Positions 1 through 64,000 of a stretch of DNA of 64,000 nt are shown here, one piece after another; the stretch's first letter is position 1, and every line of letters begins with the position of its first letter. Position numbers and translations under genes: made by a program. Below the pieces are notes generated by a model. That model saw only the letters and a list, made by a program, of their open reading frames with translations. It did not search any database and was not told where the DNA came from. This DNA is from Catajapyx aquilonaris. Its lineage: Eukaryota. Where the stretch lies: the NCBI GenBank assembly GCA_000934665.2, contig JYFJ02000741.1, forward strand, positions 62,001-126,000. Direction: 5' to 3'.

Positions 1-3000
1 ACTGCTCCTAGTTATTACCTGTTTAATGCAAAATGACGGCGCAATCTGGAGGAGGGAGGAGGTCAGCGTGACCCGGAGGTGTGTGACGTGACCCTTCCCA
101 AAAAAATCAGCTGCTTTTTTTGGGGAGGGTTTGGGGGGTTGTTGGTGGACACCGGAAGGCAGCAGGTTCTTTGGTGGGCCTCTGCTGCCAAGATGTGTGG
201 ACGCCGATGTGAGGTCAGCTGCCTGCTGCTCCTTGCCATGGCACTCGCGATGCCAAAAGGTAAAAATTTGTAACCAATTTGCTACCTTTCATACTTTCAA
301 AAAAATTTGTGTTGAGAGTGGGGTCGAGGAGGGGACGACTAGAGCATTTTTCATCGGGTTGAAGTGTTCGATAAGGTGAGGACAAAATGCATCATGGGTA
401 GAAAATCTGAAGCCGTGTTTAACGTCAGAAAATTGGAAAGGTAATCAATCAGTGATCTGAAAATGATCGATTTCATGCTGGAACGTGGGTACAGCAATAT
501 GAAAATAATGACACGAGTTAGATGGGAGGTTTGCTTTTAAAAGGCGTGAAATGATGTTTTGAAATTCACGTGTGATTAAAATAAATTGATGTTTTAATGA
601 GCAGTTGGGCTTAGGGCATTTGTGGAGTGTTCTTGCCCGATGTTGATCCAGAGGAGTTCAATGTTTGGCCTGCCGTTCATTAAACCGCCTTATTAGGAGT
701 AAGTGTTTTCGCACCGAGTTCTGACCACTTAGGAATGAAGAGACACCCCAAAAATGTTATGCACTTTAAAATGTCAGAGCACAAAAATAATATTTACATA
801 ACTGCAGTGTTAATGAACATACCTGCACACGAAGGAATTATTTACTGCATGCGATTATGGTTTGCCTTGGTGAGAGTCGTGTCATTAATTTGCAGAGCGT
901 TGGCACTATTTCTGCTAAACATTGTTAGTGTAATGTGATTTTGTGTCGTTGGCATAACAAAATTAAAGTCTGATTAACAGAATTAGTGATGCGGATTTTT
1001 TCCATGAATATTACCGGAACTGGTTGGAGTCAGGGCTACATTTCCATTGCAAAACTTAGTTTTCTTTTTTTTCCCATCGAACCGTAAAAAACATCTCATT
1101 TACACATTCTCACGTTGTCAGTTCATATTTAAGTGACCAAGTTCATCAATATTCACAATTTTAGGCCATGCAAAACCGTATTTTGTAGTGTGTTTTACCT
1201 ATACGCTTAAAAATGCCAGCCTTGAATTTTTTTTGCAGATGACTATTCATGAGGCATTAGAGTGACTGAAACCCTCGTAAAATTCTGCGTAGGTTAACTT
1301 TTTGACTTGATAATGAGATTTCCTTCCCTGTTCCATTTATTAAACCTGACGCAAATTTTTTTTACTCCCTATGTGGCATAACGTGTGATGCCATTTAACT
1401 CGAATCTCTGAGGCCTTGTTGGATCTGCTAATTCAGCAAATCCTCTTGAAGCAGGCAACCCGCACTATTTCACTGTCAGGAAGTGGCACAACCCTCACAC
1501 TTCATTGCAAGTATGCCGATATGTCAAAGTTTTTTTGACAACAAACTCATACTCGGGCTGTCTGCCGATTCTGAAGAATCGTCTTGGGATGGTCGTCACT
1601 CGAATGATTTCCTCTGGGATTGAATATGACCAGAACTTTTTTTTTCTCCTTCTCCTTTTTCCCTGTATCCCCTTGTCAGTGGCTGTCTCTCCAGTAGTTC
1701 CTATTTCACTATGTCCCGTCGGCATCCACATTTTTTCGCCTTGATAACAAAACTGCCTGAGAGGTGAAGAAGAAAAAAAAGTCGACTACGAAACACAGGG
1801 GCAAATGTTGACTCTAGAAGATCCGAAAAGAGGTCCTCTGGGGGGGAGGAAAATGTGAATGCTTTCTAAAAAGAGTCTCGGGGTGAGAATCTAGTATAGA
1901 AGAAGAGTAGGAAGTGCCTGCACCTCTTCCCCATGTAAACATTGGGTTTGGCCCATTTCCAAACTCAGAAGCCTTTCCAGCCAGTGTGTCGCAAATCCTA
2001 TCGGGCCAAGGCGGCTCCATAATTCAGGCCCTTTTGGTGGGTTGGGTTTTCTTGCCATTTCTTAACCCGTCTGACCATTCAGCAGACATTTGCGGGTATG
2101 TGCAATTAAAATTTTGTCAGCTTTCAAGCCTTCCTCTAGAGGCGTTGAACAAAACGAGATAGTTAGCTGTAAATTACATGGCGGAAATTATTGACTTGCA
2201 CATTAGTTATAGCATCGTTTTTCGATTCTGCCAACTCATTATGCTATCGAGAGAAACAAATTATCGGTTATTAAATAGCACACATTTCCATACTTAAATT
2301 GAGGTCTGACGTGTTTCTGACATGTTGGGGACTCTAGAAAAAAATGGTGTGGCTACACACGACTGGCCTTGCTTTTGAATTGCCGATGTTATTTGGGGCG
2401 CACATATATATATATTTTCGTTGTATTCATTTACTTCCACTTCAAAGGAACTATTTGCCCCACTTCTTTTTGGGGAGGTTTGAATTCCACATGTGGGCAC
2501 CGTACGCTAACAATCGATTATTGAAGTAGCAGTTGGATCAACTGGAATTTTTTCTGTGTGTGTTTGGCAGGGGCCACTACATATTTGGAAAAATAAATGA
2601 CCAAATAGCTTGTCACAGGCTGTTGGCTCGCTGTGTGCCCTGGTGTATTCGACATTACACCGAAAAAAAATAATAGAACGCAGACCATGATATGAAGGGA
2701 GAATGCTTCCGCTGCCCTGCATATAGTTCAAACTGCACGGATTTTCTATTCAGCACATTTCATTCTGGTTCAGCACAGTAGAATAAGCAATAACCAGTTC
2801 GTATTTGGGCATCGAGCGCAAGCAGAGTTAGATGTGAACGGATCGTGTCAGGCAGTCAATTGATATCGAGCTCACTTTGCCGCTGCTTGACAAATTGCAT
2901 TATTTCACAACAAACGGGTAAATTTCCGGCCAATAACTCATTAAAAGCAGGGGCTTCAATTATTTTGCCCGCATTTGTAAGAGTTGCACTATTGCAGAGC

Positions 3001-6000
3001 TATCGATTATTTTCTCTTTTCGCTCATTTGTTGTTTGGTCTTCCACCTGCCTGGAAGCGCAACTAACTACGTAGCTCCTAGATCCATGTTGTTTACCTGC
3101 GCCTATATATAACGTCACATGACACAGTCCACGCAGATGATTGATGGCCAATTGTGCATCGATTTACCCAACCCCCGGTATTAAAATACCTAACTAACGC
3201 AGGGAAAACTCTTGTTTTCGCGCACATTCCACACTGTTCTCTGCTGAAACTAATTAGAGCAAAGTAAGTCCGGCCATAATCAGTCAACCGTTGTTTAATA
3301 GTTCTTCCAAGCAGGCTCATCAATCACGAGGCTTCACTTAAAGAAATGGAGCAATTTTGCAACTGTGGTAAATGGCCATCGGTTTTTGTCCTGAAAAGAC
3401 ATGTACACTGTATCTCTTTTTCATTGGTGCCTGATCTCTTCTGTGTGCTCCAAACGGGTCTTAATACACTTGTTGAGAGACGAAAAAAGCCAGAGACTCA
3501 ACGAAGCAGAAAATTGAACTAGGTTTTTTTCTGCAGAGAACTAGGCCCGGATTTTTTCTCTCTCTATTCGAGCTCATCCCAGTTTCTGCCCTCGCTTTAA
3601 AAGGACCTCGCAGCTTCCAATTCACTTGGCTCCGATTATCATCTGACTGGAATTGTCCTCTATATGTTTTTGTCCCACGGGGCAAAGTGGGAGACCTGTC
3701 TGTTCGTGACGTTTGCAGCCTCCTATAGGATAAGATAGGGACGGGTTTTTGGCCCCCTTTTCCTTTTGGAGGTGTGCAGGGTCTACTCCTGAGGGATCTT
3801 CCACAGGTCCTTGTAACTCGAGCGAAGAGTCTTACGACGCCATCCACTCCTTCGCACGCTTGCCATTCCCACTGGCAAATGAAGCACCACGACCTGTCCA
3901 AGTGCACTTGGGAAAACCTGCCAGAGTAGTGCAACCTTGACGTTGAAGCCTTTTTGGACAACTCTGGAGGTCCTGACAAAGCACTAGTCGTGAACAGTGC
4001 TGCGGAAAAGTTTTCAAACCTGATTTCTAGCACAGCCGACTGAAAACCTAAGCGGTTGTGCCATAGGGTTGAAAAATGATGCAAACTTTTTGGTGGGGGG
4101 GGGGAGGGGGGCATGAATATTTCCAAGGCGCAAAACTTTAGTGCAAATAGCAAAATCTGGAACGCGATCAGGATTTTTTTTAACGACAGAGTGCGTTTGT
4201 TCAATGAATAATTGAGCGAGATTGTAGAGAACGGGGGCAAATACAACTTGCTCTGAGGTTACTCCTGACTTTTCGTTTTAAATTATGAATGTGCAAGTGC
4301 GGATTACTTGCTACAAGCAGGTCTGTCGCCTTAATCTTCTGTCAATTAAAGATATAAACGACATTTCCTCTTAAAATATATCACCAGTTGGCAGGCATCC
4401 CTCCCCAAGTTTCCTCGACTTTGAAAAGGGCATATGGTGGGAAAGGAAGAGGAAGAGGCAACAAAAGCACCTTATTCTATTGTGCCCTCTCTGGCGGCCT
4501 CTAATTGACTCCGAAGGAGATATTTTGTTGTTCTGTGCAATTGGGGGCTATTCTCCAGAGGCGTATTGTGCAAAGCGACGGGCCTTTTGTTCCATGACGC
4601 TGAATCTGCAACGAGCATCATCTTTCCTGGAAGCTGAATTTGAACTCCTGCAGGCCACGGCGCATGATTCCTCGACTTCAATGATTTTTTGTCGCAATAA
4701 TGCTATGCAAAGACTTTTAGCGAATCGTGCATTAAAAATTAATAAGGATGTTCATTCAATTCAAGAGATAACGTGCAGAAAATATATTTTAAAGTCTTAA
4801 AATATGTGGAGGCCACCAGGGTGTGCTCTACAAGGATGCTGGTTGTAGTCGCGACTTTTCTGAGCTAATTAACATTAATGACCGATAAAGTGTGAGGTTG
4901 GGGCGGGTCCCAAGTGCGGGAATAAAGTCACGACAACTTGATTGGAAGCTAAGTGCGGGTTATGGCCAGGGGGATTACGACCCACCGTTCATCTTTCGAC
5001 CATAACTTGGTGTCACAGGTACACCGAAATCTTCCTCCCAAAACCGTAATTACCGTCTCATCCTGCACTAAAATTTATCGTTATTAAACGTTCCCCCAAT
5101 TGAGATGAGGTTTAAGCAAAGGGGAGGGGGTAGGGGGCTTGGCTTTTATTTTTCTCCGCACTTTAATGGGCTAAACCTGCCACTCGGCAAGATTCGGGCC
5201 TCATTAAACGACAGCCTGTCGGATTTTAGCTATTTCTCGAGTCACCTTGGGCTCGGATCTTTGAAAAATGAAGGGTCTTCGGCTGGAAAGATAAGGATGG
5301 AAACAGCTTACCTTGCAGGATGTCATACTAAATGGACTAGATTTTATGGGAAAGTTTGCCCCTGCATGCCTGAAAACGCAAAGAATTTAATGACGCGGGG
5401 GGAGTTATCAAAAACGATTCATGAGAAAATAATGAAAATTGAAGAGGAAATTGTACAGGTGCAATGCAAATCTATTATTTATTTCTCGCATGTGAATAGT
5501 GTTGAGAAAATGGCGCAGCATTTATGATTATTTCACCGTTTTCAAACCACAGGCTGCATACAATATGTATATCAGAATTAATATTCTCTTAGTGGTCGAC
5601 ACTAGACGTCCAAAGTTCGCCAACAGCAGCATACAGGAGAGCTTTGCATAACCCGAAGCCGCCTGGAGAGATGCCACATACTTCGGGAGTGCACCTTTTT
5701 GCAGTGATATTTGTTTCACAGCTACTAGAGAGCACTATAGGAATCTATATGTGCTCAAGATGCCCGCGGCGTGAGGAACATGAATAAATTACGCGAATTT
5801 TATTTAAAGCCGCAAAACTCTCTCACACGCCCATTGCCGAATTTTCTTCGCTGCTCCAGTCCGTTAGCCTCAAAACTGCGAAAGTGTCGGCTAATGTTAC
5901 ATACGCCTATAACTAAAAACTGCGGATTGCAGTTGTTTCTAATATTGCAACTTTGTATAATTTTGATTTCATGGAAATATTGTTCCAAAATGTCGATTGT

Positions 6001-9000
6001 TTGCTCACGATTCCAGACCAGTTATTATGATTATTGAATCAGTGCCACATTTCGATTTAATGAAAGATACAGTGCAGTTAAAACGGCACCTTTAAATTTC
6101 CTATTTCATTAAGCTGGAGGCCCTTTGGAATGTTAATAGCTTACGAATCTAATCCCATGTAATTTAACAGAGATCAACTGAATCACTGTAAATGGTTTCC
6201 ATCCACATTTTATGTGTTTAAAAAAAATTTATTGCCCTCTGAAATGTCTTCTTGGAAGGGGACGGATTTCATACCATTTCAAAAATTATTTTATCTTAAT
6301 ATTAAATCCTTCGAAATGTTGACAAAAATTGATTTTGCTGTGTCCTGGGTTTACGGATTATATTGGAAATTAGAGGCATAATTGTCTGAACGATTTGTTA
6401 GGCAATTTGAACCTGCAGATTGCATTTCCTTAGGACTAGCTTGTGGAATGTAGACTCATTTAATTCGCTTTAATTCGTCAAGTGTCCTTAATACATCCCA
6501 GCAGTAAACACTCGACACATCAAACGGGGTTTCCCCTTCTGGCCACCACCGGCTGTAATGTCCCCAAGCCCCAGACACAATTGAGACCGCCGCACAAACA
6601 AGGAATTCGCCAATAGGGCATTTGCAGTGCTGATGGATTATGCCGGAATCCGGGTTGCCCCCGATAGCACCAAGGAACATATATGCGAGCACGGAACATG
6701 CCCTAGAAATGAAGGGTGGCGGTTTTCGCACACCTCATACTCCCCACCCAATTTTTTTTCATCCTGCAAATTTTGAAGGACTTGATGAATTCCGGTTTCA
6801 TCATTGATGAAATCTGGACTTTTCCTGCAGCCTCCGGGTCCAGTATATTGTTTCGGACTCCCGGAGTTGATTCCACAAACCATATACGGGCCAGCCTTTT
6901 TTTCAATATCGATGCTGGCGTGAACTATTGTTGGTGTGGGAGGTTGCGGCAGACCAAGTGCAAAAATGGAGACTTTTTTTGGGGCCCCGTATGGTCCGGA
7001 GGGAAAATTTTGGATCTCCCTGGGGTTACATTTGGGGGGGGGGGGGGGTTATATTTCTCGCAAGAAATTACACTGCAGGGGATGAATGGATGCGTGACAT
7101 GCATTAGTACTTTCGCTTTCACAGCAGCTTTTTTTTATGGTGAGGTTTTGCACCCAGTATCCTGCACCTTCGGTGGTTGGCGAGCCCCGGAATTTGTCCA
7201 TTCATCAAACGGCCCCCTATGGCAGTGCTCATTCGAACAGGGAACAATTTGTTCTCTTTTTGGAGCTCAAATTAGCTGCGGTTTTTGCTAAACGTCAGAG
7301 TCTCCTTAGGAAAATCAGTCAGCTAAACCTTGTTATGAGAAAGTGATAAATGAAAAAAGGTGTGCGTTGGGGTGCAACGCTTTGTCTTCCTACATTTGAC
7401 GGACTGGTTTTTTTTACCAATCATGTTATGAATGTGTGGTCCCATGTGCAAGCCATGTAACCATCAATTTTGCGTGCAGATTGATAGGTAAGCTGTTCAC
7501 ATCTCACCCAACGATGCAGATTTCAGGCTAAAACTGGCATTTTCATAGTCCCAAAAGCCAGTGCATGTTGTGCCCTCTGAATCTTCTGACCAACATTATT
7601 TTCTGCATTGAAAACATTTTTAAATGTGTTTATTATGCTAAACATGCTATCATTTTAAAAGTAGACTGTATTTGTCCAAAGGCCAGTCAGCCTTCACAGG
7701 TAAATAAATAAAAATACAACATGTTTTCGAATTTAAGCAAAATAATGAGAAATTACTATTAGTAAGGTAGTTCAGTACTTTGAATAGTAACAGTGAATTT
7801 TTTAACGCCCATGCAGCTTACAGTTAAATCAAGATATATATGCTGCTTGTTGCGATAAACTACGGTGCTTTAATCCGTCTTAGATGGATTAAATTGAGAG
7901 CTTAACGCATTTTTATAGCCCTAGTGTCTTCGAATATTCAAGGCTCGACCCCGGCTTTTCCACGGGTTTCCATCGTCGAGATTGAATTTTGTGAGTGCAA
8001 GCACTTAATTTGCTTTATTTCTAATCCATACTGTCCAAATCTGTTCCGTGCCATATTTATGTCCTTTTAAGTGTCACTGGAACACTGGGAGTTTTAATGG
8101 GTAATTGCGTCGGATGACAGTGAAGCGTCGGCGTGGAATCTGGGTCAGAAAACGGGTTCTAGGAAGTTGGCTAGGAAGCTAGAAATTATTTCCGATAGCG
8201 GTTAACAAGTACATTACTTAGCAACAATCGCCTTCAAATTTCAGCATCTTAAAAAAAAAAGAAATAGGATTTTCTTGATTGAGGACGCCAAAGGAAGCTT
8301 CATTAGTCCGCATCGCTAATAAAGTTTCACTGCCTAGAGCAAACTCTTCAGCAGCAGCAATTAGGCATTCCTTTTTTTCAACTCTTTCCAAATGGCATGC
8401 ATAAGAATTAGTCAAAAAAGTTGGCAGAGCCAGCTACTCTTTTTAGGTCCTCTTTACTCCCCCCAAAAATGCGCGACAGCCAGGGATCGTTACCGGACTC
8501 GAAATTAAACGCTGGACAAAGTACAGCAGATCAGCTGTGGATTGTGCGAGTACGTAGTACAACCCTGGAAAAAATCCTGTCCGGATTTGTCAGCTGTCAC
8601 TGCTTTACTAACGAGGAAAACTGGCGACTGCTCATCGAACTAGTGCTGACTGGACTGCTGAATTGGCAGAAAGAGACTTTCCAACCGTGATTCTAACACC
8701 TCCAGTTTCCATTTAATTCTGACTGTAAGATGGGAGTGCATGATAACTGATGGTCCAATTTCCCCATCCCATAATTATTTTTTTCTTTCTAGTGCTCTCG
8801 CTACTTCCTTGCGCCTTCTGGGTGGGTTCAGATGGCTGCATATAACGAACGATGTAAATTTTAGTTTTCAAGTAAAAAGAAGTGCCTACTTTAAATTTGT
8901 CTTTTTGCATTTTTTTGAATGCAAAAAAGAAATATCTAATCACACGCATTAATTGGCAATTTAAGTGACTAGGTGACATGAGCGGAGGGAATTTCGAATA

Positions 9001-11086: not shown

Positions 11087-11335
11087 AGGTGAAGTGGGGT
11101 AAGTGCATACACGGGGTAAGTGCATACACGGGGTAAGTGCATGCACGGGGTAAGTGCATAAACTGGCCTCCATATCGGAATGAAAGTGGCTGACATGCTC
11201 ACCTCTTGTGGGGATGTGATATGCAGCTACACAAAAGAGTGCCTGACGTGCTTTGGTGTCGTCAGTCATTTTCATTCCAATATGGCGGCCCCGTGTATTC
11301 ACTTACCCCGTGTATGCACTTACCCTACTTCACCT
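11087..11335. mobile_element. Non-autonomous TIR DNA transposon (MITE/foldback-like), 249 bp, with modular TIRs
   Basis: Left end TA|AGGTGAAGT then 4 copies of the 17-mer GGGGTAAGTGCATACAC (11096-11163). Right end has 2 inverted copies of the 17-mer then ACTTCACCT|TA. An inner 30-bp arm GGCCTCCATATCGGAATGAAAGTGGCTGAC matches the reverse complement of 11261-11290 at 26/30. TA flanks both ends (11085-86, 11336-37). No coding capacity. Confidence 0.9.
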
Positions 11336-14300
11336 TATATTATATATAAGTGTCCCATAAATTATTGGTCGTCATTAAAATTACTAGAAATTGGGATTGA
11401 TAACATAGTGGATGATATAACGGTTTGCATGCATGCCTTTCCATTACAAGCCATTGAGTTAACACTGTACAGTATTTCATAGGCTGACATTGTCAAGTAG
11501 TTTTATCCGCTTCACTCTCTAGGAATGATACTGTTGAAAAATTAATTTGTTAAATGCTCGATTAGCATGTATCAGTGGTCTGAACAACCCTTCACTAGAG
11601 GGTAGGCTAATCACTCCCGAACCCTAAAAGCACTCACACCAACAAAACGTGCATAATGACTCCAAACAGCACCTGAATTTGAAAGAAATCGGCCCATGCA
11701 ACCTTGGAATGCCTTAAATGCCATCAACATGTGCCTGAAGGACCATAAACGATTCCTCCCCCAAAGTTAGACTCTCCAACGGGATTTAAACTTTTGAGAG
11801 TCGCCATTGCGGCCAGGCCTCCACTCTTGAACAACGCACCTTTTCCCTCCAAACTAAACCGCTGGGTCCAAAACGAACGAAGAGAAAGAGGGCTAAGCAG
11901 AGCTGCGGACCCACCCCCGCAATTACCAAATCAGTTTGGCAGCGATTCTGTTAAGTGGATCGGTCTGGTGCGAGAAAAGCGAGTCCCCTCCCCAAAAGAA
12001 GCGGGCGATTTGAATGCGAATGAGTCCCCAAGCTTGGGTAGGAGCTACGGAGGCTTCAGGTCCCTTCAGAGTCGTTGAGTTGCGGCCCAGGAGCCAAGGA
12101 AAATGTTGCGTCAAAAGAAACCGCTCCCAAAGGTGCTCTTCTCCGCTTTGGGAGAGAAGGAGGCAAACTGTATACAGGAAGGGGAAAAAAACTGTACCTT
12201 GCACCAAGGCAGATGAATAGGCGGCCGGGGATAATGAACACACTTTGGGTTTTTAGGATTAATGGCGGGGCATCCCTCCGGTGCTTAATTGGTGCTTGGG
12301 ACAGACCAAATGGCACTAATTAAAAGGCGCGGGGTTATAGTGCTTTCCGATTTGCCAGTTGGGAAGAAACTGCCACCTCAGACAATGCTAGTGGTCGTTT
12401 TGCTAACTATATGTCAAGGCAGGAGGTGAAAATATTTTTAAACAAAAGTCGTTAGTCAGCAACAATTCAACAACTGATGATTTCGCCACCACAGGGTCTG
12501 CCCATAAAAACATTATTAAAAAGCGCGAAATTGGCAGCAAATCAAATTATCGTTTACATTGTAGAGTAACTGCAGGGGCAAGTGCCTGAAAATGATTTTG
12601 TTTTGCAAATGTTCCGGGATTAACCTCGATTTTGAATCAAGCCTTCATAAAACGGGGTTTGATAGGTTGACTGCAGCAAATATTTTCCGTTGCCGCAAAT
12701 CCGATTTGATCTCGTCATGAATGGTTACCGTGAAACCATTACTAATAAGCATAATTCATGTAGCGTAATTGGGCCTCTGGTGGTACCCGATTTTGTCAGC
12801 GTTGTACATAATAATAATAATGGAGCCACCCAAAAATTTCACTTCACGCTGGGAGCGATGTATTCTCTCTACACTAGGTGGAAAGAGTTACTCTTTACAT
12901 GCTAGATCCTGTCAGTACTCATGTAACATAGAATTGACTAGGCGAGACTGTGTCTATCCACGGTGACCGATCATCAACGTGCATGTAGCACTACTTTCCA
13001 CCTGAGAGCGGCAGTAGTGTACAGAGCCTGGGCGCCACCTGTTAGTGTCATTTCGTACTACATCCAAGTGGGGCAGTATTGCCAAGTTTTGTAATGAGGG
13101 ACAAAATAATTGTATTATGGCTGCAAATGAATGTGTACGAGCGATATAGTACATAACAAAGCGTATGGCTTTGCATAGCATTGGGTGGTAAACGGGGCAA
13201 GGTTCAAACTTAATGGTCCTGATATTCGGTGTACATACCGTACATAACACCGAGCCTTCCCCCAGTGGCACCATTTGTCAAAGGGCCGCAGTCAAGTGGC
13301 GGCCTCGCTAGATAGAGAGCGAGCCAACCGAGCTATCTCCCAAGAATGTGATTGAATCGTGTGAACTACCCCGGATGTTTTGGATGGGGCGGAGGGGGCG
13401 CGTTGCCGCCAGATTACCGCCCCCCACTTGGGCCCCCCCACGACTCATTTTCCTTCTCCCGGAAGCCCCTCGCAGCTTAATCTCCTTTGCGCTTCCGTGC
13501 CCCCTCGCAACATTTTATTTTTTAAACTGAAACCAGTAATGTTGTCGGGTAATGGCGGCCTAGGCGCAGCTGAGACAGGGTCTCCCAATTTGTGTTTTAA
13601 AGGTTCCTACACGCAAATATTGTCACTATCCCGGCCAAGCTTAGGACTCGGATAGGGCTTTACCCAGAATCGACCAGGAGACAAGCCCAAATGAGAGGCC
13701 CTTGTTTTTTTGGGATGGGAGTAAAGGCTCTTTAAGGTTTTAATTATCGCTAAACTAATTTACAGCCTCGGGTAATGAAGGGTTGGCGGGAAAATGTGGT
13801 CCTGATGCGATCGTGACATACGACAGGCTTTCGGCTGGAATGGACCTGAAGCTGAGGTTGAACACTGCTAGAACTGGATAAGAACTTAATGAAAGCCAAA
13901 AGTACAGGGTGTGGCAGAACTCTGTCGTTGGCAATAAAAGAAAACCTTGAGTGCTTGTGAAATAAGTGCGGCCAAGACCTTTCGTAGAGTGGTACAAACA
14001 GTGTATATCGGATTGGTGAATGGTCCAACCCATCTCCTGGAGATGACGACCACTCCAGGAAAGATTCTTCCATTTGAGCAGCCGCATTTCTCTTTTATGG
14101 GGAGCGTGTCAGAAGGAAGGCCACGTGGAGCACTTCAGATTGTGGCTATGGCTCTTGGAAGAAGAAGAAAAAAATGGCGACTGAAAAAAATAGCGGTGCG
14201 ATTGGCAGCGTTATCTGCTTGCTGATCCGTGACCACAATGGAGTGCCGATGGCTCAAGCTTTGCACATAATGACCAGGGAGGATTTTCAACCGAGGAAGA

Positions 14301-17300
14301 ATTTGATGACCACTCTGGTCCTCTGAGGGTTACAGGACAGGAAGGAAATTGAGCGGGGGAAGAGGTGAAGGGAGAAAAGCCCTGGCGCTTTTTTAAAAAA
14401 AGAGTTTTTTGGGGTGTCATCAACGTGCCGCACTTGAGCAAGGAATGTCGTTATTGTCTATGGAGAAGGATAAAATAATATCTATTTCGGAGGGTGCTGG
14501 AGGAAAAGTGCTGCAGCCGGCTTTTGGAGAGAGTATTACAGAGGCGTAAGTGTCTAAGTTAAGATGACTCGCTAAAATACGAGGTAGCCATATAGACTTG
14601 AGTCTAAAGTGCGCTGCGAGTGCGAAAGAAGTTGTTAATGGCTTTTGTTCACTTTGTGAAATCAGAGTTTCTCCTCATCACAGCCGACACACAAAAACTG
14701 GTCACCGCAACAACAGGTTGACACCATTTCATTCAAAAACTGTAATTACTTTTTTCTGTGCAGACATGTCAAATGCAAAAGTACTTGGCATTTGCGCGCA
14801 ACATATCACATAACGCAGCTTGATAATTTTGATGTCATTACAATTTGCTGTTCAATGAATCTAATATGAGCACGAAGGCTTTGCACAGCGGCTGTGGGCT
14901 GCTTAACTTGTGTGTTCATTGCTTTTCATCGTACTGTTAAAAGCGTCATTAGCTGGAGTTACTATCATGAGCTCAAAATAATCTGGGATTTAACTTTCCC
15001 ACGCGCATTATTATTTATCCATAGTTTTGCAAAAACCTCTACTTATTGTGTGCGCTTCAAAACATGCAGTGAGCCCATCCTAAGTCTGGTTATATTTTAT
15101 TTATTTCCTTCTCGCAAACCCACCTAGCAGACTTTTATTGTGAGTGGGCGTGCATGGTTTCAGTCGTCCCCATTGGCCACTTGCCTTGATTTATAGACCC
15201 TCTTGCTGCCCCAGAAAATTTACGATTGCTGGTCCAAGGAGGGTCATTTCAGTAATATGCAACCCACTCATCGCACCTTCGAACCGAACCCTATGAGTAG
15301 AGAGGCCCATATGCAACTCAAGATGCTTTTCCTTGCTTCCCCCCCAAAAATGAGGGCTAAAAAATGATCCATGGCCAAATTACCTGCCTCTCTCCATAAA
15401 GCAACCGACGCTTGTTCCTTGTCATCAAAACATTATTACACCTAAGAGGAGTAGACGGATAAGATGGGGGAAGGATGGCTTATAAATGTCTTAATTCTGA
15501 AGGCCTTGCAAGATTGCATGCTTGGCAGAGGCAGCCGAGGCCGTTACGCCTCTAAATTACCGTCACTTAGGGCAGATTTGGGCGTGGGTCCACATGTAAT
15601 CCGTTCTCTTAGGCGGGCCGGAAAATTCATTGGTGTTGGGAACCTACGTAGGAGAAGTCTGTTTAATCCTTTTCATCACTGTGCAAGGGTCACCTTGTAA
15701 GGTGTCAACACTGCACAATTTTTTTGGCACTGGAGACAAACTTTTTTAGGTTTCAAAATTTTGAGTAATCCGTGGGGGTAACACATGAACAGTACATGAT
15801 CCGGCCAGTTGTTGAACATGTGTGCGATGTGTGTGGGGAAGGGTGCTGCAGGCGCTGGCATTATTATTCATGCATCCTGCTTCATCCAGGGGTTTTCCGA
15901 AATGCCTGGGACATAGTTGGAGAGAGAGCAGGGTTCATTCCAAAATGCGGAGGGAATCCATTAATGCAGCGGGTGCATCATAATCAATATCATCTCATAT
16001 TTTGCAGCGGCCCGAGTGAGGCAACTGTTGATGATGCAGATGACATGCGATCTGTTCTGGCGATAGTCGATGCTTGTTTTAGTAGCCCTGAATAATACAG
16101 GCCTTTCATGCCAAAGTTGGTAGGCTACGTACAGGATGTTTCATAACAATGCAGAAGCTTGGATCATTACGGAGCACCCAGTGCCCACGATTTTCTGAGC
16201 CTACCTTTCTAAATTAAACCCACCTTTGTTCTTAGTCCTTTGTGCTTGAAACTGGCGCAAGTCCCTAGTATGTGTGCGTGAGGCTGAATTCTAAAGTTCA
16301 GAGAATTTTAGCGAATTAAAATTGCAGACTCGCCATAGAGCCAAAGAGCCGCTACATTTGGCCCATTACAACGTCAAGTTACAGGAGCGTGGCAAAAGAA
16401 GTGCTCCAGCATTGCATTTCGGGGGCCGCCGACTGGCTTAACGTTCATTAGCGGTCAACGGTCCGGATGCACCGGATCTCTGGAGACATTCGCCTCAGCA
16501 CATTTATGCATAATTCTGACTATTCCCCACACGGGAAATAGAATCAGTTTTTTTTGCCGAAATGCGGGGAGTAACTGGCGGTTGTTGCGAATCCGCATTT
16601 TTGTTTGATTCCGGGAGAATAGAGAGATGGGAAAGTTTTTACTGCCATAATGTATTGATGGAATTGGACCCCATCTTGGATGCTGGAGCGGTGTATATAT
16701 GCCGCTATGGGATCTCGTAAAAGAAGTGTCTCTTTCCTCGGGGCTGCTTGGAAGGACTGCCAATGAATGGAAATGCACTCGGAGTTAGAATTACAGATTT
16801 CGCCACAACCTGAGAGGCAGAAATTTTTGCTTTGTTTTACTTTACCGTCTGGCGGCAAAGGGGGGGGGGAAACGCTTGGTTTGCTGTGTGGACTCTTTTT
16901 TTCCTATTTTTTTCGGAAAAAGTAACTAGTGTAAATGTATGCTAGCTAGTGCTTTCCGTTGGGGTTGGCCAAGTTGGCTAGGGCTCAGCTGTACGGGGCA
17001 GGTGTTGAATTGACAAGGGAGTTCTTTGGAGAGGAAAAACAAGGAATGGCTTTCTTGAAGGCTCTCTTCATCTTCCCGATCTCGTTTTCTCTGGGGCGAA
17101 AGGTTACGGGGATTATTTTCGACGGATTGTAATTTGCTTCTGAGACTTCAAAAGATGAGCTTGGGAAGAAGGAGGTATAATTATTTAATTTATGGAGTCT
17201 GAGGCGTACCACCGGAGACTAATCCGAATAATTATGGCACATTATTTTGAAGCAGAATGTAGCCAATATTTTGACCTAAGAATAACCCGCAGTGAAATAA

Positions 17301-24025: not shown

Positions 24026-24041
24026 TGTGTGTGTGTGTGTG
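24026..24041. repeat. (TG)8 microsatellite
   Basis: Perfect TG dinucleotide run read directly. Confidence 0.85.
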
Positions 24042-48200: not shown

Positions 48201-48992
48201 AAGGCATTGCCTCCAACGGAATCCTGCACCTCATAATGCTCTTCACGTCTGCAACCGACGTATAGCCAAGTCCCTGAGGTCTTCAATCGCAAAAAAGAAG
48301 AAGAAAAAGGGCCAAAAAAGGGCCGAAACTAGCCTTTTTTGAGACGGAGGAAAAGGAATGAAAGTGTGCTCGCCGAGAAGCAGCCTCGAGGCTCTTCTCA
48401 TGAAAAGTGTGCATTCAATTTCTCCACCTCGTTAATTAAGGCCTCCCTCTACTTTTTAGAGTACTTTAAAATCATAACCTCACGTCACTAGACTTGATCA
48501 AATGCAAGCTCCTTTTTTCCAAGGGGGTCTCCCGCAATATTTCTGCAAGTTGAGCGAAAAGAGAGCATGAATAAGTAATGAAAAAATGTCGAGTAGTTTT
48601 AACCGCTATTGAGGAAAATGAAAACTTGAAATTAATAATCCGCAGCACTCATGTTAAAAGGTGAATGGAGCTAGATTCTTACTCATTAGCTGTTATACAC
48701 AAGCCACAAGGTAAAACCAAAACGTGTGTTGGAAGGCAATATTTTAACATTAAATGGTTCTTGTAGGCGAAAGGTATGGTAGAAAATATTTCTATTTCGT
48801 TACTGGAGCACGTAGCGAGAAGTTAGGCTCTCGAGTCATTCATAAAGACGGCAACTAAAGCGCTATTACCGGTACTGTTTCCCCCTCCTTATATTTTTCT
48901 GGGTTTTTTTAGAGAAAGAATGGAGAAGGATGACTTCCGCAATACATTTTCTCCACCAACTGAAGTAACGGCGGCGTGGCCACCATTAGAAG

Positions 48993-49166
48993 AGAGAATA
49001 ATGACAGGGAGGCCAGTACTTTTTTGTGTTGCGTTTGGTGCCCTCTCTTCAATGCGGGCCTTTCCCCCCCCCCCTATCNAGAGAATAATGACAGGGAGGC
49101 CAGTACTTTTTTGTGTTGCGTTTGGTGCCCTCTCTTCAATGCGGGCCTTTCCCCCCCCCCCCTATC
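48993..49166. repeat. 86/87-bp direct duplication flanking an N, probably an assembly overlap artefact
   Basis: 48993-49078 and 49080-49166 are identical except for poly-C length (11 vs 12). A single N at 49079 separates them. Confidence 0.9.
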
Positions 49167-56126: not shown

Positions 56127-56148
56127 GTGTGTGTGTGTGTGTGTGTGT
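56127..56148. repeat. (GT)11 microsatellite
   Basis: Perfect GT run read directly. Confidence 0.9.
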
Positions 56149-56874
56149 ATAATACTGTACTACCTGCGACGCTGAATCAGGGAACATGCCAGAAATTGTA
56201 TTTAGAATGGGCTCAAGTGAGGAGAGATTTGAGCTGAAACACCGGGTGTGCAATCCTCTTTGGTGTTTCGGGGGCTATTATCTCCTGCTTGGCCATTCAG
56301 GTAGTAGGAGTGTTGGTCGCATTGCTTATTCATTTGCGATAATTAAGGCGTACTCCTCCCTTTACTCGTGTCCCTGCTGCATTTCAAGAACAGGTACAAG
56401 AAAGTCTGTGGTAATTTTGCGGAAAATACTCGAATAGACAAAATCAAATGCATTTTTGCAGCACACTGTTTGATTACTATTATTATTATTGCCAGCAGAA
56501 AAACAAGTCGATTATTATGAAGTGGAGCTCCAATATTTAGTATTAGCCAATTTCAATAATCATATATTTACCATTCCATGTTATGTGATGACAGTGAATG
56601 ATGCGATGATAATTTAATCACAACGAAAATGAATATTTTGTGGCACAGATCAAGCATACTACGACCTCCGCTATTTAATTTGCATAATTGTTATAATAAA
56701 TTAGTTAATTAACTCTTTACTTGAAAGTGCCAGTGGCTGTATATCTGTAGCATACAGTTTACGCTTAAAAATTGTTCACGCCCAGTTCATTCTTGTTCAG
56801 AATTAAACTGAATGAAAAGTCGTATACCATTTGTTTGCTAATTTGCAATGCATGTGATGTTTTCGCCCATTTAT

Positions 56875-56961
56875 TGATTAACCTGCGCCTTGTTTTTGTC
56901 ACTTTTACAGGTAAGTATTGAATTATTAAAATGGCCAGAGGTGCATGATTTAAGGGTAAGT
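56875..56961 (+). other. Candidate recursive splice site (ratchet point) with 45-nt cryptic RP-exon
   Basis: Branch-like TGATTAAC (56875-82), then pyrimidine tract CCTTGTTTTTGTCACTTTTA, then CAG|GTAAGT (AG 56909-10, GT 56911). No AG dinucleotide from 56820 to 56908. A second perfect donor, GG|GTAAGT, at 56956. Confidence 0.7.
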
Positions 56962-59900
56962 TCAGGCTGGCACGTAAATAATTCACCTATCCTCGCACAA
57001 GATGCAGAGAATCTGAAAACCACGCCTGTGAACCGATGTCTCAAGAGCTCAGTAGGAGTAGCACCTAACATTATTGGAAGGCTCTCGTTTGATGTTGGCA
57101 GGATTTTGCGAAAGAGGTAGCTATAGTGTGGTGTATCCTGGTTTGGTGATGAAGCCCGGTGGCGTGCGTTTCGATCAGGATAGAGACTGCGGTGGTGCAC
57201 AAAGCTATAGGAAAAGTACAGGGTGCGGCGAGAGTAATCAGGCTTTGGAAATCACTGCTCTCCCACAGGATTCCTGAGGCTTATCTGTGCCTGACCAGAC
57301 AGGCCTCTTCATCTCTTTTCCCTTTCCAACACCTCCTGGATAAAAAAGGAGAGGGTTCCTGCTATTGCAAAGCTTAACCGGTCGTTAAGATCGGCAAGCC
57401 TGAAAAGTTTGAGCTAAATTGCTCAACAGTGGAACTTAATGAAGTCTTCGGATTGTGCTCAAGGCACTAAATATACACATTTTTGGGCCTCTCTCCGGAT
57501 TTGTCTGTGCTTAAGGAACGTGTTAACTTAAACTCAGCTTAATTGCACCTTGAGTCTGGTCCGAAAAAGAATCCCAATTTGCTGTGCAAAGATCCACGTA
57601 CTTTTTTGCATGTCGACTGTGCCTACATTCCTTTCCCGAAGCTTCCGCCGAAATCAGCAGGACATTTCAGTCGGATAATGAGTCCGGAGCTTTAATTCGA
57701 AATTTAAGAAGTTCGCCTTTCATTTCCTGGCTAACGATCTCCCTGTTGAGCTATTTCAACAAGCCTGCAATCATTCGTCTTCTTTTTCCGGACCCAGAGC
57801 AGGGGCAAAAAAGAGAGCTACATTCCGGAAAAAAGGGACGTTCATAAATTATTCTCAACCCTGTTTGTGACCAACCCCTTTGGAATTTACAATATATCGT
57901 TTTGTCAATTGGCTCGATCATATACGGAATGGTTAATATAGATTTGAAAATTCAAAATAATTGTTTCAAGGCTAGCAGCAGATTTTAGTTGCATTGCAAG
58001 AAAAACTGGTTGAACGGGATAGCCAGTTTGTGTACCTAGGTATAGGTTCGATGATGATAATCTTGCACCTTAAGACAGTTTTTTGACATATTTTTGATTA
58101 ATCATCACCGCATCTGAATTTGATATGAAACAGCGACCAACTTGTCAATTTGCATTTCTGCATCCATTCCGTAAACCGGTTCAAAAAAAATAAACAAAAG
58201 TCGCGTTTTAGGCCCCAAATTGAACCAGTAATCGCGCAGTTATGAACAGGGCGCGCGGCCAGAAACCCCCGCGAATTAATTTGCGAAAATAATGCTGTTA
58301 GTCGGCCGCGCCAATACCCGGGCCCCGACACGCCATCTGCTAGTTTAGTGGGCCCAACCAGCACATGTGAAGCCGCAACCATGTCAGCACCGACTGAATA
58401 ATTCCTCCTGGCCTGCGAAAGACAACCAAGAGGGTACGCCACTTCATACAAAACAAGACACTGCGAAAATCACGCAGACTAATGCAATTTTCGGAGCTCT
58501 TGGAAAACGGCTACAAATTTTGCACAGCTCTCAGAGATTTAAGCCGCGGATGGAAAACACCTCTTAACAACAAAGAGACGTAAATCAAACGGTTAAAAGC
58601 ACCAGCAGTAAATCACGGATTAACCGTCCACTTAATAGCATTAAAAAGGAAGCGTTAGTCTAGGGCGTCAGGAGCGTGTCATGGCCGCTTGATATGAAAT
58701 ATTTCAACACCTCCCGCGGCATAAATTCATCGGCTGCAACTTTGCATGGGACACAAAGTGCGCTAAGCACTTTTCCCTGCGACCCTACCCTGAATCTGAT
58801 GGCGACAAATAAAATTAGAACCCCCTGTGTCCCGGTTCATTTATCAGCGTCAGACCCCGGTAAAATTTAGTGTACTGCTGCAAATTGCACAGTCCCGTGT
58901 GATTGTCGCTCAGCCCCCCCTTTTTTTATCCGGGCTACCCTTTTCACTCCGGGGGTTTTGCAACTTGCCGAATTCCAACTTGTCAGTCGTTTGAGCCTAA
59001 AGCGTGAAAATGGCTCATTCCAACATTTTTTGCCCAGGTGAGTCGCACCTGAAAAGGTTCGTCGTTTCTCTTCCACACTACTCCGGATTCCTGATCCGGA
59101 TTTCTGGCTTTGTGTGGCGACCCGGTCCTTGCAGAAGCACTTGGAGGTTAGAGAAAGTGAGGAATCCGGGGCTGACAAAATTATGCGGTTCATTTGGCAT
59201 CTAGTGGTGGCCTGTAGATTATTATCCTGTACTCTAGGGGTCGGACTGTCGCCTTATACTTTCTCCGGTCTCAGTTGGGGACCGAAAAAAATGGTAGAGA
59301 GAAAATGGTTTTTGATTGCTCGTTTCATATTTCATGGGGGATGGTGCGGAAGAAAACGACCGGTCTGATCTTCGTCTGGTGGCATGGAACCAAGTAAACG
59401 ATGGAGATCGATGTTGCCTCCCTAGAGCCAAACCTGAATTTTCTGTACAGGAAAAACTTTCAGAAAGTACTGATGGAGCTTTCCGGTATTTAGGGTGCCT
59501 AGACGGTGATCAGAGCCAGAAAATGCCCAACAAAAATAGTGAGCAGAAAACCACTAAAAATTAGCCCATACTCTATAGTATGCCTAGTGTCCTATACTGT
59601 ATATAGGACGGTTGTCCCTCCAAAAAATTACAGTATTTTTAAAAAATTAATAAAAACACATTTTAAATTCTTCAGAGAGTAATATGGCAAAATATTCAAT
59701 TTCACATTATTATGAATTTTTTCATCTTGCTTGACATTAGATCGATTGATTGAACTATTTTCAGGAAGTGGGAAGTTTCGAGCCTCGCCACCGAAAAAAG
59801 AGCGTTAACTATTCTAGGGCCCGGGTGAGAATTTAGGGAACATTGAGATTCATTGCCCCCTGGAAGTAGCAGCTGCAGCTTCCTCTCGGACAAGAACGGG

Positions 59901-62900
59901 TTGGATGTAACTGTATATCAGGGGATTTATGGGCCGGAGCTGCGGTGCTTCCATCCCACATTTTAATCTCAACTACGCTCGCTTCACGCACTAAGACATT
60001 ATGTGCTAAATGCAACTGTTAGCATTTCCATGTTGGATGAACATGATGAATCGTCCTGATTTTGGGTGCTGGGCCTCGAGCCCCTGAATTAATCTTAACC
60101 TTTGTACCTGACTCTGGACAGTGGAAGTAACAACTCTATACACATTAAAGCCCTCTTGGGCTTCCATATAGTGCGATTCTGTGAAATACGAGGCGTTGAA
60201 AAAAAACGGGTGTGCACAAATGACATGATTGTGTAAAGTGACAGCGTCACCAACTGTTATTGTTTCCCATTCGATTAACTTGTTAAGTTTCGAACTGTCA
60301 CTGACAGTTCCTCTAATTACAGCAAAACCGCGGTGTTTGCTTTGTAGCGTAATAAGTCTGCACTACCCCTCTTTTGTATTAATTAGTGGGGGGTACTACT
60401 GCGGAATAGTGAGTCCCAAGAGGGTGGTCTGATTCGCCAATTTATAAAACCAGGTTTTCTTCCCACTTTTTCATAGATTAACATTGAAAGCGGTAATTAC
60501 GCAGAACTTTAGTTTTTGAGGGCCCCAAAACTTTGACACAATAAGGCCAGAAAATGACAATGAATAATTACGGGTTTAATTTGCCTTTTGACAATGTGAA
60601 AACGGCAATGCACATTATAATACACAGGGGGTGACAAATAGAGAGTGGCAGGGTGGGTGGGGAGGAGGTGGGGAATTAATTAGACCTAGGGAAGAATATT
60701 GATTTTGTACAGTGAAAGTAGCAGGAAATTGCCATTTGACTTGAAAATGAGCGGCAGGGAAGGGTACGCTTTATATTTTGTAAAATCGGGAATGCAAATG
60801 ACTGATTACGTACACCTTGTTTATTGGAAGCGGTACGTGCAGTGCGGGCTCGTCATTTAACGCATGCCAAGTATTACACGGAATTGGTTGTTGTAAACTT
60901 AACCACAAACGAGAGCGCTCCCCCACTGCTCTCTCTGTACTCCACTAGTGCATGCAAGCTACACCAGGGTTCGAATTTTGTTATTGTAACCGGCTCTGTG
61001 ATCCACATGCACAATTGCGGCACATTACATAGGAAAATGGGCGCAAATGGTATAATTAGTCGTTATTTTCCACCCCCACTGAAGCGATGCGACTTTAGAA
61101 ATTGTGCCAATTAGACGGATTAGTCTTTGCTTTTGATCTGCGAGTATTGTAAAAGAAAAAACTCCGTTTGTCATCCCTCCGCTCTGGCGAATATAAGCGA
61201 TATTAGCGAGGACCATAATCAGATGACATACCTAGGTTTGACAGCCCTCCTTTTGGGCAAAAGGCGACACACTCCGACGAAAACTGGAAATCGATTATTA
61301 TAACGACGTCTCTCTCTTCTCGCCACATCAAACGACCCCCTTTGATTTTCTGAAACCACGCCTTTTTCATTTTCTTGCAAGACGTGGTCCGTAATGGTAC
61401 AAAACTGGCCGGATTTTTCGCAGTGTATCCCTCCGCAACAAGTTAAAGTCTTGTCAACTTGTTAAATTCCATTTGTTAATAAGGGATTTCCAGACGGGGC
61501 CCGGTTGCCTTTGAGTTGTTACAAGCCGCGGGCTTTGTCCGCACTACAGCAAAACGAGTGTAGAGCACTGCGGGTGGGGATAATACCATTGCAGGGTTCG
61601 TTGCGCCCGGGAATTCATTGGACAGCTGGGTGGAGGCTTGGGGGATATTATTGCGCTCGTTACGAACCAAAGTTATGTTCTTTTATTTTGGTCTCGACGA
61701 TGGGCACACGTTTCTGCTCATCCTCGCTGGAGCTGTTCATTTCCAGAAGAGAAAAAAAATTTGTTGGACTTTTGGGAGAAAAAGTTCTGGAGTAAACGGC
61801 CATCTTTGAAACAGGGGGAGAGGCTGGTTCCGGATGTCGTGGCAGAAAATGTGTTTACCCCCGTAAATATATATAGGGGAGTTGCTTTATCTTGGGAGGA
61901 ATGGTCCGTCTCTAAACCTTCAATGTTGCCATCTGGAATTGATTCCTGCCACTTGAGAAGTCAGGGGAAGGAGGCCATTCTGCCTTATCCGCTGTTCATG
62001 CGCTTGAATGGCTTTTGGTAGAAGCCGATCGGGGGTAAAAGTTTGGAACAAGGTGTCGCTCCCCGTTGCACTCATCTTTTTCTGGAAGGGGGGGAAAAAG
62101 CCAAGATTATTTCAAGCTAAAGGATGCCACGCGCAGAAACTGATCTTAGGCGAAAAAGCTCAGGTTTGCCAACAAAAAGCCCTACAAGTGCGGCTTAACT
62201 TTCACCTTCGTTCCAGTCCAGGGCTATACCGGGTGCGGTGTGGGGGTGCTTATCTCAAGTTAAGGAGGCCTCCTCGTTGTCCTGAAATTGAGCGACATGG
62301 TTTGGCACTTGGCTGTATAGGGATGCAAGCGGTGGAGCGCGAAATGTGATGATAACATGGCTATTTTGTTTCGGGAACATGAAAAATTTGAGTATCTTTT
62401 ACTATATGAGCTATAGCTGAATAAGGTGGAGGCAGTGATTTGCAGGCTACAAGATCCCACGCGGACTGTATCTGCTTAGGGTACAGTATTCAGTCAAGGA
62501 CCTCTAGAGGTTATTCTCCCTTCGCAACTTCTTTGTAATTTGATGGCCACAGTTTTGGACATAATTATTCGCTACACCTGTTTAAACATGCTGATTATTC
62601 CTGGTTGTTGGTGGGAAGTTCAAAGTTCCGAGTTTTCACTGGCGATTTTGTAAGCTCGCTGCCCAGATTAACTGGTTATTTTTAAGTCAGTAACCGACTG
62701 AGGTACCATATGAGATGTTCACAAAGTGATTTGCCTGTTGCAATCTAGCACATCTTGCCAATTCCTGCTTGCCAGAAGGTATGTAAGGAACGTCTGTGAT
62801 GTAGAAGGAAATGACAGTTTATTGACCTTAAAGAGCTGACTGTGTTTAACCAACCTATACTAAGTACAACACTTCCCACTATTACTAATGAGTGCCCTTT

Positions 62901-63894
62901 AACCCCTATGTACTAATCATTAAATCTGCATGTTTAATGGGTAGTAAGATGCTTCAGTGACTGTTTGGAAAACATCATAAAACTTTTACATAACAATTTT
63001 CATTTTTTTGCCAAAGGCTGATGGTTGTTTTCAACTGAACACTTCTCACTTTCCCTGCAAGAATATTCAGTACACTGTAATTAAATCATGACACAACTGC
63101 CTACAACAGCCAAGATGTTTGTACAGGGTGCCAGGTCAAAACCTCTCCTCCTCGGCCTAGCAGTGGAGCCAAGCCCCTGCATTATGCGTGCCCTGCTTCA
63201 CTTGAATGTCAGAGAGTTAAGATTTTAACAGTAAAATAATTAATGAACATAAAGTGGGACACAGAGGTGTTGGCGTGACTCCAAGAGCGGGGAGGCTGCA
63301 TTACGCAACTCACAAGCAGCGTATGAAGTCGAATCAAGAGTCTCCATGCATCTTTCATTCCTCCTGGAGCCTAAGGGAGTTTCTCAGTTCCTGTCCTTCA
63401 TATCAGTTGGGTCCTTCCCACTAAAATTCTCCTATTAAACATTCCAATCTGTGCTGGACAGTCGCCCCGGTGAACGAGCACAGACCTTGTTCCCACCCTA
63501 ATCGAATCTCGCTGATTGGAAGGCAATGATGAGCATCCTCCTTCCTCCCCCGCGTTTCCCACAATCCAACAGGTCCACAGGGCTCGGAAAAGCCCACTAG
63601 GACCCGGAGGAGAAGTCACATCTGTCAGCTCCAAACCGGCCTTAAAACCGACTCCTGCTTGTTAACAACCGAACCCAGCCTACAACCAGTTACGGCATAC
63701 GAATCGTGACGTAGCCAGTGATTTGTTAAATACCATTTATTTCAATAGTGGTGAGCTTCTGAGAGCTGGGGCGTCTTCATATTTCCCACTCTGCTCCATC
63801 AGGTCCATGCAGCCTCTCGCTGGATCGATTCCTCTTTCCACGTAGCCCCACCTTGCCTGGGGTGCATGAACCGGTCCTCTCTCTGCTTTTCCAG

Positions 63895-64000
63895 TCGCAC
63901 TCACGCATGTTGTACGTGTACGCACGCACACCTGCGCCGATGTCAAGCACAGCCGGAGAGTCGGTTCGGAACGTGGTTTTCACAAAGTTTTGCTCCGGCT
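63895..64000 (+). other. Possible exon running off the window end, product unknown
   Basis: Acceptor TCCTCTCTCTGCTTTTCCAG (63875-63894; 17 of 18 bases before the AG are pyrimidines; no AG from 63846 to 63892). All three + frames stay open to 64000, with an ATG at 63907. A minus-strand exon reading PEQNFVKTTFRTDSPAVLDIGAGVRAYTYNM and ending at a GTGAGT donor (63904-63899) is also possible, so strand is uncertain. Confidence 0.3.

Follow-up and report, generated by a model that had tools for sequence, protein, structure and literature searches.

Interleaved run-rich and AT-rich textures in a 64-kb, essentially non-coding stretch of the Catajapyx aquilonaris genome

Introduction

Eukaryotic non-coding DNA reportedly shows cryptic simplicity and over-abundant oligopurine and oligopyrimidine tracts, observations said to go back to Tautz, Trick and Dover in 1986 and to Behe in 1995. 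An excess of runs and tracts is the signature that is called cryptic simplicity and is usually attributed to replication slippage. Compositional patchiness of DNA, or its "mosaic organisation", was described by Karlin and Brendel (1993) and Peng et al. (1994), as cited in a portion of PMC13404986. For conserved non-coding elements (CNEs) of fish, human, worm and fly, the portion of Vavouri et al. (2007, PMC1852409) used here gives an A+T content of 58-62% with GC-enriched flanks, and it cites Walter et al. (2005) on the flank signature. An excerpt of Bagshaw et al. (2006, PMC1543642) associates poly-purine/pyrimidine tracts with recombination hot spots of 1-2.5 kb in yeast and human. We describe here a stretch of 64,000 nucleotides from Catajapyx aquilonaris (GenBank assembly GCA_000934665.2, contig JYFJ02000741.1, positions 62,001 to 126,000 of the forward strand), referred to below as the window, for which a preliminary description had proposed that two textures alternate along the DNA: state A, GC-richer and full of homopolymer runs and purine or pyrimidine tracts, and state B, AT-richer and dominated by alternation of purines and pyrimidines.

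Both textures are present, and neither repeats nor coding sequence nor a decayed tandem unit accounts for the statistic that separates them. The window as a whole, and the part of it that carries a weak periodic signal, may be entered as follows; neither feature has a strand.

1-64000: whole window, interleaved run/tract-rich and AT-rich balanced non-coding DNA (hidden Markov model, open reading frame scans)
1-21000: sub-region with texture modulation of about 1.675 kb, crests near 60+1675k, about 12 cycles (sinusoid, spectrum)

The preliminary description knew of no system that gives such a pattern. Patchiness and low-complexity tracts have been known since the 1990s, and the window is one instance of them. 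As in described patchiness, the patches differ in purine/pyrimidine content and in nearest-neighbor usage, are over-dispersed and vary broadly in length; unlike it, the contrast lies mainly in the frequency of purine-purine plus pyrimidine-pyrimidine steps (RR+YY, 0.58 vs. 0.48 in the two states) rather than in strand purine content alone, and one third of the window has a weak characteristic period. State A resembles cryptic simplicity in its local repetition of short motifs and in an excess of homopolymers and purine/pyrimidine (R/Y) tracts beyond composition, but this excess is moderate and confined to patches, and Tandem Repeats Finder returns just seven rows of short tandem repeats in 64 kb. 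State B resembles CNEs and clusters of cis-regulatory modules, so far as the portion of PMC1852409 characterizes them, in being 62% A+T, in often adjoining GC-richer sequence and in its TAAT cores; the likeness is one of composition only, and a B patch, at 0.3-1.3 kb, exceeds a single CNE in length. The GC-richer, tract-rich segments also fall on the 1-2.5-kb scale of recombination hot spots, but the association in the excerpt of PMC1543642 concerns yeast and human, while here it is a matter of sequence texture alone.

Two textures in the window

The RR+YY fraction averages 0.537 over the window. In the 15 blocks proposed as state A it ranges from 0.573 to 0.637 (mean 0.606; mean GC 0.481), and in the 14 blocks proposed as state B from 0.442 to 0.516 (mean 0.468; mean GC 0.380), state A being GC-richer on average. 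Homo-dinucleotide steps (0.342 in A vs. 0.270 in B) and AG/GA/CT/TC steps contribute about equal shares of the contrast. Four hand counts of purine/pyrimidine switches that had been offered in illustration (14, 18, 38 and 35) match our recount exactly. The blocks are listed below without strand; the posterior in both lists is that of the A state in a two-state hidden Markov model (HMM).

State A (run-rich) blocks
1560-2070: RR+YY 0.637, GC 0.464, posterior 0.98
3480-4130: RR+YY 0.603, GC 0.493, posterior 0.98
5100-5400: RR+YY 0.617, GC 0.465, posterior 0.94
6700-7300: RR+YY 0.573, GC 0.478, posterior 0.92; G15 run at 7034
11750-12300: RR+YY 0.620, GC 0.525, posterior 0.99
18450-19030: RR+YY 0.612, GC 0.448, posterior 0.89
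19850-20560: RR+YY 0.606, GC 0.466, posterior 0.89
21330-21740: RR+YY 0.612, GC 0.474, posterior 0.92
23950-24640: RR+YY 0.593, GC 0.479, posterior 0.96
28380-28800: RR+YY 0.586, GC 0.580 (the highest GC), posterior 0.97
34830-35450: RR+YY 0.635, GC 0.481, posterior 0.99; 34-nt purine tract at 35095
42830-43660: RR+YY 0.593, GC 0.487, posterior 0.94
47780-48550: RR+YY 0.612, GC 0.423 (not GC-rich), posterior 0.89
58900-59560: RR+YY 0.595, GC 0.472, posterior 0.93
61560-62280: RR+YY 0.590, GC 0.488, posterior 0.98

State B (AT-rich, alternating) blocks
740-1000: RR+YY 0.442, GC 0.352, posterior 0.04
5450-6100: RR+YY 0.475, GC 0.396, posterior 0.11
7400-8100: RR+YY 0.501, GC 0.369, posterior 0.16; weak
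12500-13250: RR+YY 0.457, GC 0.419, posterior 0.10; holds a short multi-copy repeat at about 12975-13026
14560-15100: RR+YY 0.470, GC 0.392, posterior 0.08
19100-19800: RR+YY 0.471, GC 0.364, posterior 0.07
20620-21300: RR+YY 0.451, GC 0.361, posterior 0.02; dense TAAT-type motifs
23000-23700: RR+YY 0.443, GC 0.364, posterior 0.01; the most extreme
27050-27650: RR+YY 0.472, GC 0.446 (not AT-rich), posterior 0.16
33700-34650: RR+YY 0.458, GC 0.391, posterior 0.03
41830-42480: RR+YY 0.489, GC 0.376, posterior 0.18; weak
47300-47750: RR+YY 0.449, GC 0.386, posterior 0.07
56420-56900: RR+YY 0.454, GC 0.324, posterior 0.01
62800-63250: RR+YY 0.516, GC 0.381, posterior 0.21; the weakest

The standard deviation of windowed RR+YY exceeds that of Markov simulations of order 1, 3 and 5 (z 5.3-13.6; window sizes from 100 to 1000 bp, 40 simulations each). 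GC content alone does not explain the statistic (r2 = 0.11). The blocks show no homology to one another, as had been stated at the outset: a self-comparison by blastn yields only three small local repeats.

An unsupervised HMM with first-order emissions reached the same two-state solution from three of three seeds. Its gain over a single state was 227 nats, vs. 6.6 and 9.9 in two homogeneous simulations, and its posterior for the run-rich state lay at 0.89-0.99 in all 15 A blocks and at 0.01-0.21 in all 14 B blocks. The eye-picked blocks are genuine extremes, all 29 being recovered blind, and the analysis serves mainly as a calibration. By the Bayesian information criterion (BIC) three states are best (174,778, vs. 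174,833 for two and 174,819 for four). The third state is gained because A divides into patches of about 55 bp that are rich in either purines or pyrimidines: two tract states with purine fractions of 0.59 and 0.42 are mirror images of each other, each with an occupancy of about 0.31 and a dwell of about 55 bp, and patches of opposite purine/pyrimidine strand bias are therefore present, while the remaining state is AT-rich and balanced with a dwell of about 220 bp. The three-state solution amounts to two strand-symmetric textures, of which the run/tract-rich one occupies about 58-62% of the window and the AT-rich balanced one about 38-42%.

In 250-bp windows the statistic is unimodal (Shapiro p 0.53; BIC favors one Gaussian), contrary to the bimodality that a clean two-state mosaic had led the preliminary description to look for. 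Because the states lie only 0.09 apart and the dwell is brief, unimodality alone does not exclude two states. The listed blocks are clean extremes, the tails of a smooth distribution, and span 27.5% of the window.

Composition of the two states

GC content of the window is 43.8%, with two single N's. Observed/expected (o/e) ratios are 0.80 for CpG and 0.74 for TpA, and AA, TT, GG and CC are all above expectation. Against block-specific dinucleotide simulations, the A blocks hold 124 homopolymers of at least 5 nt (88.6 expected) and 65 R/Y tracts of at least 10 nt (40.6 expected), with local 4-mer repetition at 1.26 times expectation. The B blocks fit their own dinucleotide expectation, with 43 homopolymers vs. 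46.5, 7 R/Y tracts vs. 5.9 and 4-mer repetition at 1.06 times. Window-wide, there are 9 runs of G or C of at least 9 nt, where 100 simulations from the three-state HMM gave 0.86 on average and 4 at most, and 39 runs of A or T of at least 8 nt, where the same simulations gave 14. The long G or C runs are located as follows.

G or C homopolymers of 9-15 nt (n = 9): 4095, 7034, 16860, 35113, 41999, 43360, 49064, 49151, 54109

State B was proposed to be AT-richer and to favor TpG and CpA. Both parts stand (o/e for TpG/CpA 1.29/1.33 in B and 0.99/0.95 in A), but the alternation is general, every purine-pyrimidine or pyrimidine-purine step being raised, including GpC (1.40). The B blocks contain 207 copies of ATTA/TAAT vs. 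145.9 expected (z 5.1) and 43 of AATAAT vs. 20 expected, although AT-rich simple sequence could produce either enrichment. They are 62% A+T, and 9 of the 14 have an A block no more than 350 bp away. A 28-mer from one B block, used in a scan of one metagenome for a copy from a relative, gave no match.

Directly past the A block with the highest GC, some 55 bp (28800-28855) contain three ATTTGCAT-like octamers, a group that may be a promoter or enhancer core.

Coding content and strand asymmetry

The GC-richer blocks might have been exons alternating with introns, a reading that was rejected for want of triplet periodicity, codon-position bias or Pfam support. Period-3 power in 300-bp windows shows no excess (99th percentile 2.93 vs. 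2.90 shuffled). Only three open reading frames (ORFs) of at least 150 amino acids occur in the window, and codon-position bias is absent from the nine longest (chi-square p 0.31-0.77). The longest of all (265 amino acids, minus strand), in the A block at 3480-4130, has no Pfam match and a codon-position chi-square p of 0.33 and is not coding. The Pfam scan covered 474 ORFs, namely 239 stop-to-stop ORFs of at least 70 amino acids on both strands and 235 plus-strand ORFs of 45-69 amino acids; the 236 minus-strand ORFs of the latter length lie outside the set. It returned one match barely above its curated cut-off (ADK_lid) and three sub-threshold matches (E 0.003-0.006). Scans of the window against Rfam and for transfer RNA genes gave no matches. 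The absence of period-3 signal and of codon bias, together with near-empty Pfam, Rfam and transfer RNA scans, makes the window essentially non-coding eukaryotic DNA.

The ADK_lid match, at 15769-16092 on the plus strand (27.1 bits vs. a cut-off of 26.6), arises from a stretch containing CxxC and was judged spurious rather than a gene. No stretch passes alone, and the translation is not protein-like; adenylate-kinase motifs sought in all six frames are scattered over frames, strands and distant places, none of them beside the match.

The plus strand has more G than C (z 6.1) and more T than A (z 3.4) across the window, and its G+T exceeds its C+A in 16 of 16 bins of 4 kb. Such a skew can be tied to transcription, and its uniformity is consistent with a single direction of transcription or replication over the window. 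A short ORF on the plus strand at 193-258 opens with ATG, encodes a signal-peptide-like hydrophobic core and ends at a donor-like AAAG/GTAAAA. Possibly this ORF is a plus-strand gene's first coding exon, in which case the window would be filled by the first intron of that gene. The likeliest identity of the window is a large intron or a regulatory landscape, with transcription from the plus strand.

Patch lengths and periodicity

According to the preliminary description the textures switch every 1-2 kb or so throughout the window. The textures hold up; the window-wide regularity was overstated. Decoded patches are mostly 0.2-0.7 kb long, with medians of 349 and 213 bp for the two states and coefficients of variation (CV) of 0.87 and 0.94. 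Merging of pieces shorter than 100 bp leaves 109 patches (medians 558 and 340 bp); a cycle of A plus B then averages 1171 bp with a CV of 0.49. Lengths are near-exponential, fitting shifted exponentials (Kolmogorov-Smirnov p 0.11 and 0.97), which speaks against periodicity. Centers of the proposed A blocks are spaced 1.3-11 kb apart. Composition shifts sharply between adjacent patches, and no enhancement of contrast between neighbors was found (r 0.08, p 0.51). The impression of a regular mosaic is mostly the result of picking 27.5% of a unimodal, near-memoryless patchwork.

The peak of the whole-window periodogram is not significant (p 0.40). The autocorrelation in 100-bp bins does have a negative lobe of -0.115 at lags of 600-1000 bp (look-elsewhere p 0.005 from simulations of a first-order autoregressive process plus noise). 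The lobe is deepest, at -0.21, over the first 21 kb, where the autocorrelation also climbs to +0.24 at 1.6-1.9 kb. In a sliding spectrum, power at 1700 bp is 16 times white noise (16.1) in 0-16 kb and weakens past about 20 kb. Over 0-21 kb a sinusoid of 1675 bp has an r2 of 0.18 for binned RR+YY and 0.35 for the HMM posterior, and GC, TA+AT and the homodinucleotide fraction share an identical best period with RR+YY. No 1.68-kb signal is present in 21-64 kb (best r2 0.048; r2 of 0.008 at 1700 bp). Over the first 10 kb, runs of G or C of at least 6 nt (133, 1840, 4095, 5397, 7034, 8459 and 9901) lie 1.3-2.3 kb apart.

Autocorrelation of A/T (W) and G/C (S) dinucleotides, WW and SS, gave no nucleosomal periodicity of 10-11 bp in either state. 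In A-state segments of at least 200 bp, the W-W/S-S autocorrelation has a trough at lag 7-8 and a weak peak at 13-14, which indicates short A/T runs alternating with G/C runs, not a nucleosomal signal. A non-exhaustive full-text literature search found no description of a homology-free, kb-periodic purine/pyrimidine texture.

Origin of the patches

What the window shows is probably the patchiness of composition that is ordinary for a long regulatory intron, where AT-rich, module-like patches stand between low-complexity, slippage-prone spacers. The preliminary description had mentioned constrained elements separated by slippage-prone spacers as the mundane alternative to its own proposal, and this is the better fit to the run and tract excess of A, the TAAT enrichment and 62% A+T of B, and the flanks. 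The excess of runs in A, the agreement of B with its own expectation, the TAAT cores and the CNE-like composition jointly favor it over periodicity. State A, with a GC content of about 47%, few TpA steps and low complexity, and composed of patches about 55 bp long, rich in purines or in pyrimidines, with homopolymers in excess, would arise and persist through replication slippage and small insertions and deletions in weakly constrained spacer. State B, at 61-62% A+T, strand-balanced and enriched for TAAT-type cores, would hold information-dense cis-regulatory modules. Patch lengths that are broad and near-exponential, with a mean cycle of about 1.2 kb, would require no periodic process.

Several observations weigh against this explanation. 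The intron context depends on one candidate exon-like ORF plus the strand skew. The excess of local 3-mer simplicity in A is small (1.10 times, mean z 1.1). The o/e for TpA is 0.54 in A vs. 0.86 in B; slippage is not an obvious cause of this, and A, not B, could be the non-neutral state. The AT-richness of B is equally expected of unconstrained DNA under AT-biased mutation. The negative lobe was reached in none of 3000 autoregressive-plus-noise simulations, none of 300 HMM simulations (150 + 150) and none of 500 segment shuffles, and the 1.68-kb peak has a look-elsewhere-corrected p of 0.020 by segment shuffle and of 0.007 and 0.010 by HMM simulations. Since lobe and peak go beyond every null, a memoryless patch model is incomplete.

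Those last two results bear on the headline idea of the preliminary description, a kb-scale periodicity of chromatin, DNA modification or repair imposing two mutation spectra, which finds little support in the window beyond a modest signal in the first 21 kb. In a local form it would say that a real kb-scale process, perhaps chromatin features at regular intervals, the boundaries of nucleosome arrays, or hot spots of recombination or gene conversion, sets regularly spaced run-rich, GC-richer patches. We judge this distinctly unlikely, even though several statistics agree on the period of the 1675-bp sinusoid in 0-21 kb, the peak (p 0.007-0.02) and the lobe at 600-1000 bp pass all nulls, the G/C runs of at least 6 nt are spaced as described in the first 10 kb, and poly-purine/pyrimidine tracts are linked to 1-2.5-kb recombination hot spots in the excerpt of PMC1543642. 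The signal is missing from 21-64 kb and the whole-window p is 0.40; patch lengths are near-exponential; neither a CpG-deamination signature nor a 10-11-bp periodicity accompanies it; and a significance of only about 1 in 50 to 1 in 150 was obtained in a window picked by eye for its texture. The 1.68-kb regularity of the first 21 kb is most likely a chance run of similar spacings, and that it is real rather than chance seems to us rather unlikely. The same regularity could instead be the ghost of an ancient tandem array of about 1.7 kb whose simple-sequence patches were regenerated by slippage, as local periodicity over about 12 contiguous cycles beginning at the window edge might suggest. This is very improbable. 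The tandem unit of about 1.5 kb that the preliminary description wished to exclude was rejected, there being no similarity by self-blastn (the three small local repeats only), no excess of k-mer offsets, base identity at offsets of 1400-2000 equal to that at control offsets (maximum 0.467 in both), and 19.3% of 455 weak high-scoring segment pairs within 10% of multiples of 1675 bp vs. 20% expected.

The patches might also be fossils of old insertions, decayed transposable elements or retro-copies, each retaining the composition of its source. Abrupt changes of composition at neighboring patches would follow, the depletion of TpA in A (0.54) is like that of transcript-derived sequence, and multi-copy sequence is in fact present as two short repeats (near 12975-13026 and 28930-29236). 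We nevertheless consider this origin unlikely. A transposon protein domain was found by Pfam in none of the 474 ORFs, and the blocks lack homology to one another inside the window. Young repeats do not account for the blocks: in contigs from one nearly homozygous sample, which gave the copy-number and variant data for positions 11500-31499, 28 of 30 depth bins are single-copy at a likeness of at least 90% (about 28-42x). A patches moreover share one texture and B patches another, which is not expected of unrelated insertions. Least probable of all is a methylation mosaic, in which B was methylated and decayed by CpG deamination while A stayed unmethylated. The AT-richness of B and its TpG/CpA ratios of 1.29/1.33, vs. 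0.99/0.95 in A, point that way, but the effect in B is one of purine/pyrimidine alternation and is not specific to TG and CA, and CpG runs counter to the prediction, with an o/e of 0.81 in B but 0.69 in A. Since B is no more depleted in CpG than A, a signature of methyl-deamination is lacking, and domains of methylation and CpG deamination were rejected as the source of the textures.

The finding as it stands matters little, being one instance of a known phenomenon. Should B patches prove to be conserved, a simple HMM of composition would offer an inexpensive way to predict regulatory modules where a genome lacks annotation. Quite unlikely, in our estimate, is a true texture alternation of about 1.68 kb running for some 12 cycles through the first 21 kb or so of the putative intron with no homology between cycles. 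If it were true and recurred genome-wide, a regularly spaced process would be writing composition into DNA without an underlying repeat. That process might lie in chromatin domains arranged in phase, in hot spots of recombination or gene conversion at even intervals, or in simple-sequence relics of a lost tandem array that renew themselves. Genome-wide replication of a homology-free 1.68-kb periodicity would be a sign that sequence evolution is subject to some regularly spaced influence not described so far.

Local repeats and variants

Two places, at about 12975-13026 and 28930-29236, are short dispersed repeats, with summed contig depths of about 500 and 2000 vs. about 31 elsewhere; many contigs stop there, and their flanks are unlike. 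A 17-mer array at 11096-11160 (3.8 copies) is followed about 130 bp away, at 11289-11325, by its reverse complement (2.2 copies). This foldback (11096-11325) may mark a locus for a hairpin RNA, or else the termini of a small mobile element. At 48993-49166 an 87-bp unit carrying a run of C11-12 is tandemly duplicated with 98% identity, and one of the two N's of the window, at 49079, lies at the junction of the duplication. The sole variant cluster in the 20 kb with variant data, at 22652-23478, comprises 16 substitutions and 2 small insertions. These variants are on extra contigs of depth about 8-19, additional to full-depth reference contigs, and the cluster has the look of a rare haplotype, or of a second copy that has diverged, rather than of ordinary heterozygosity.

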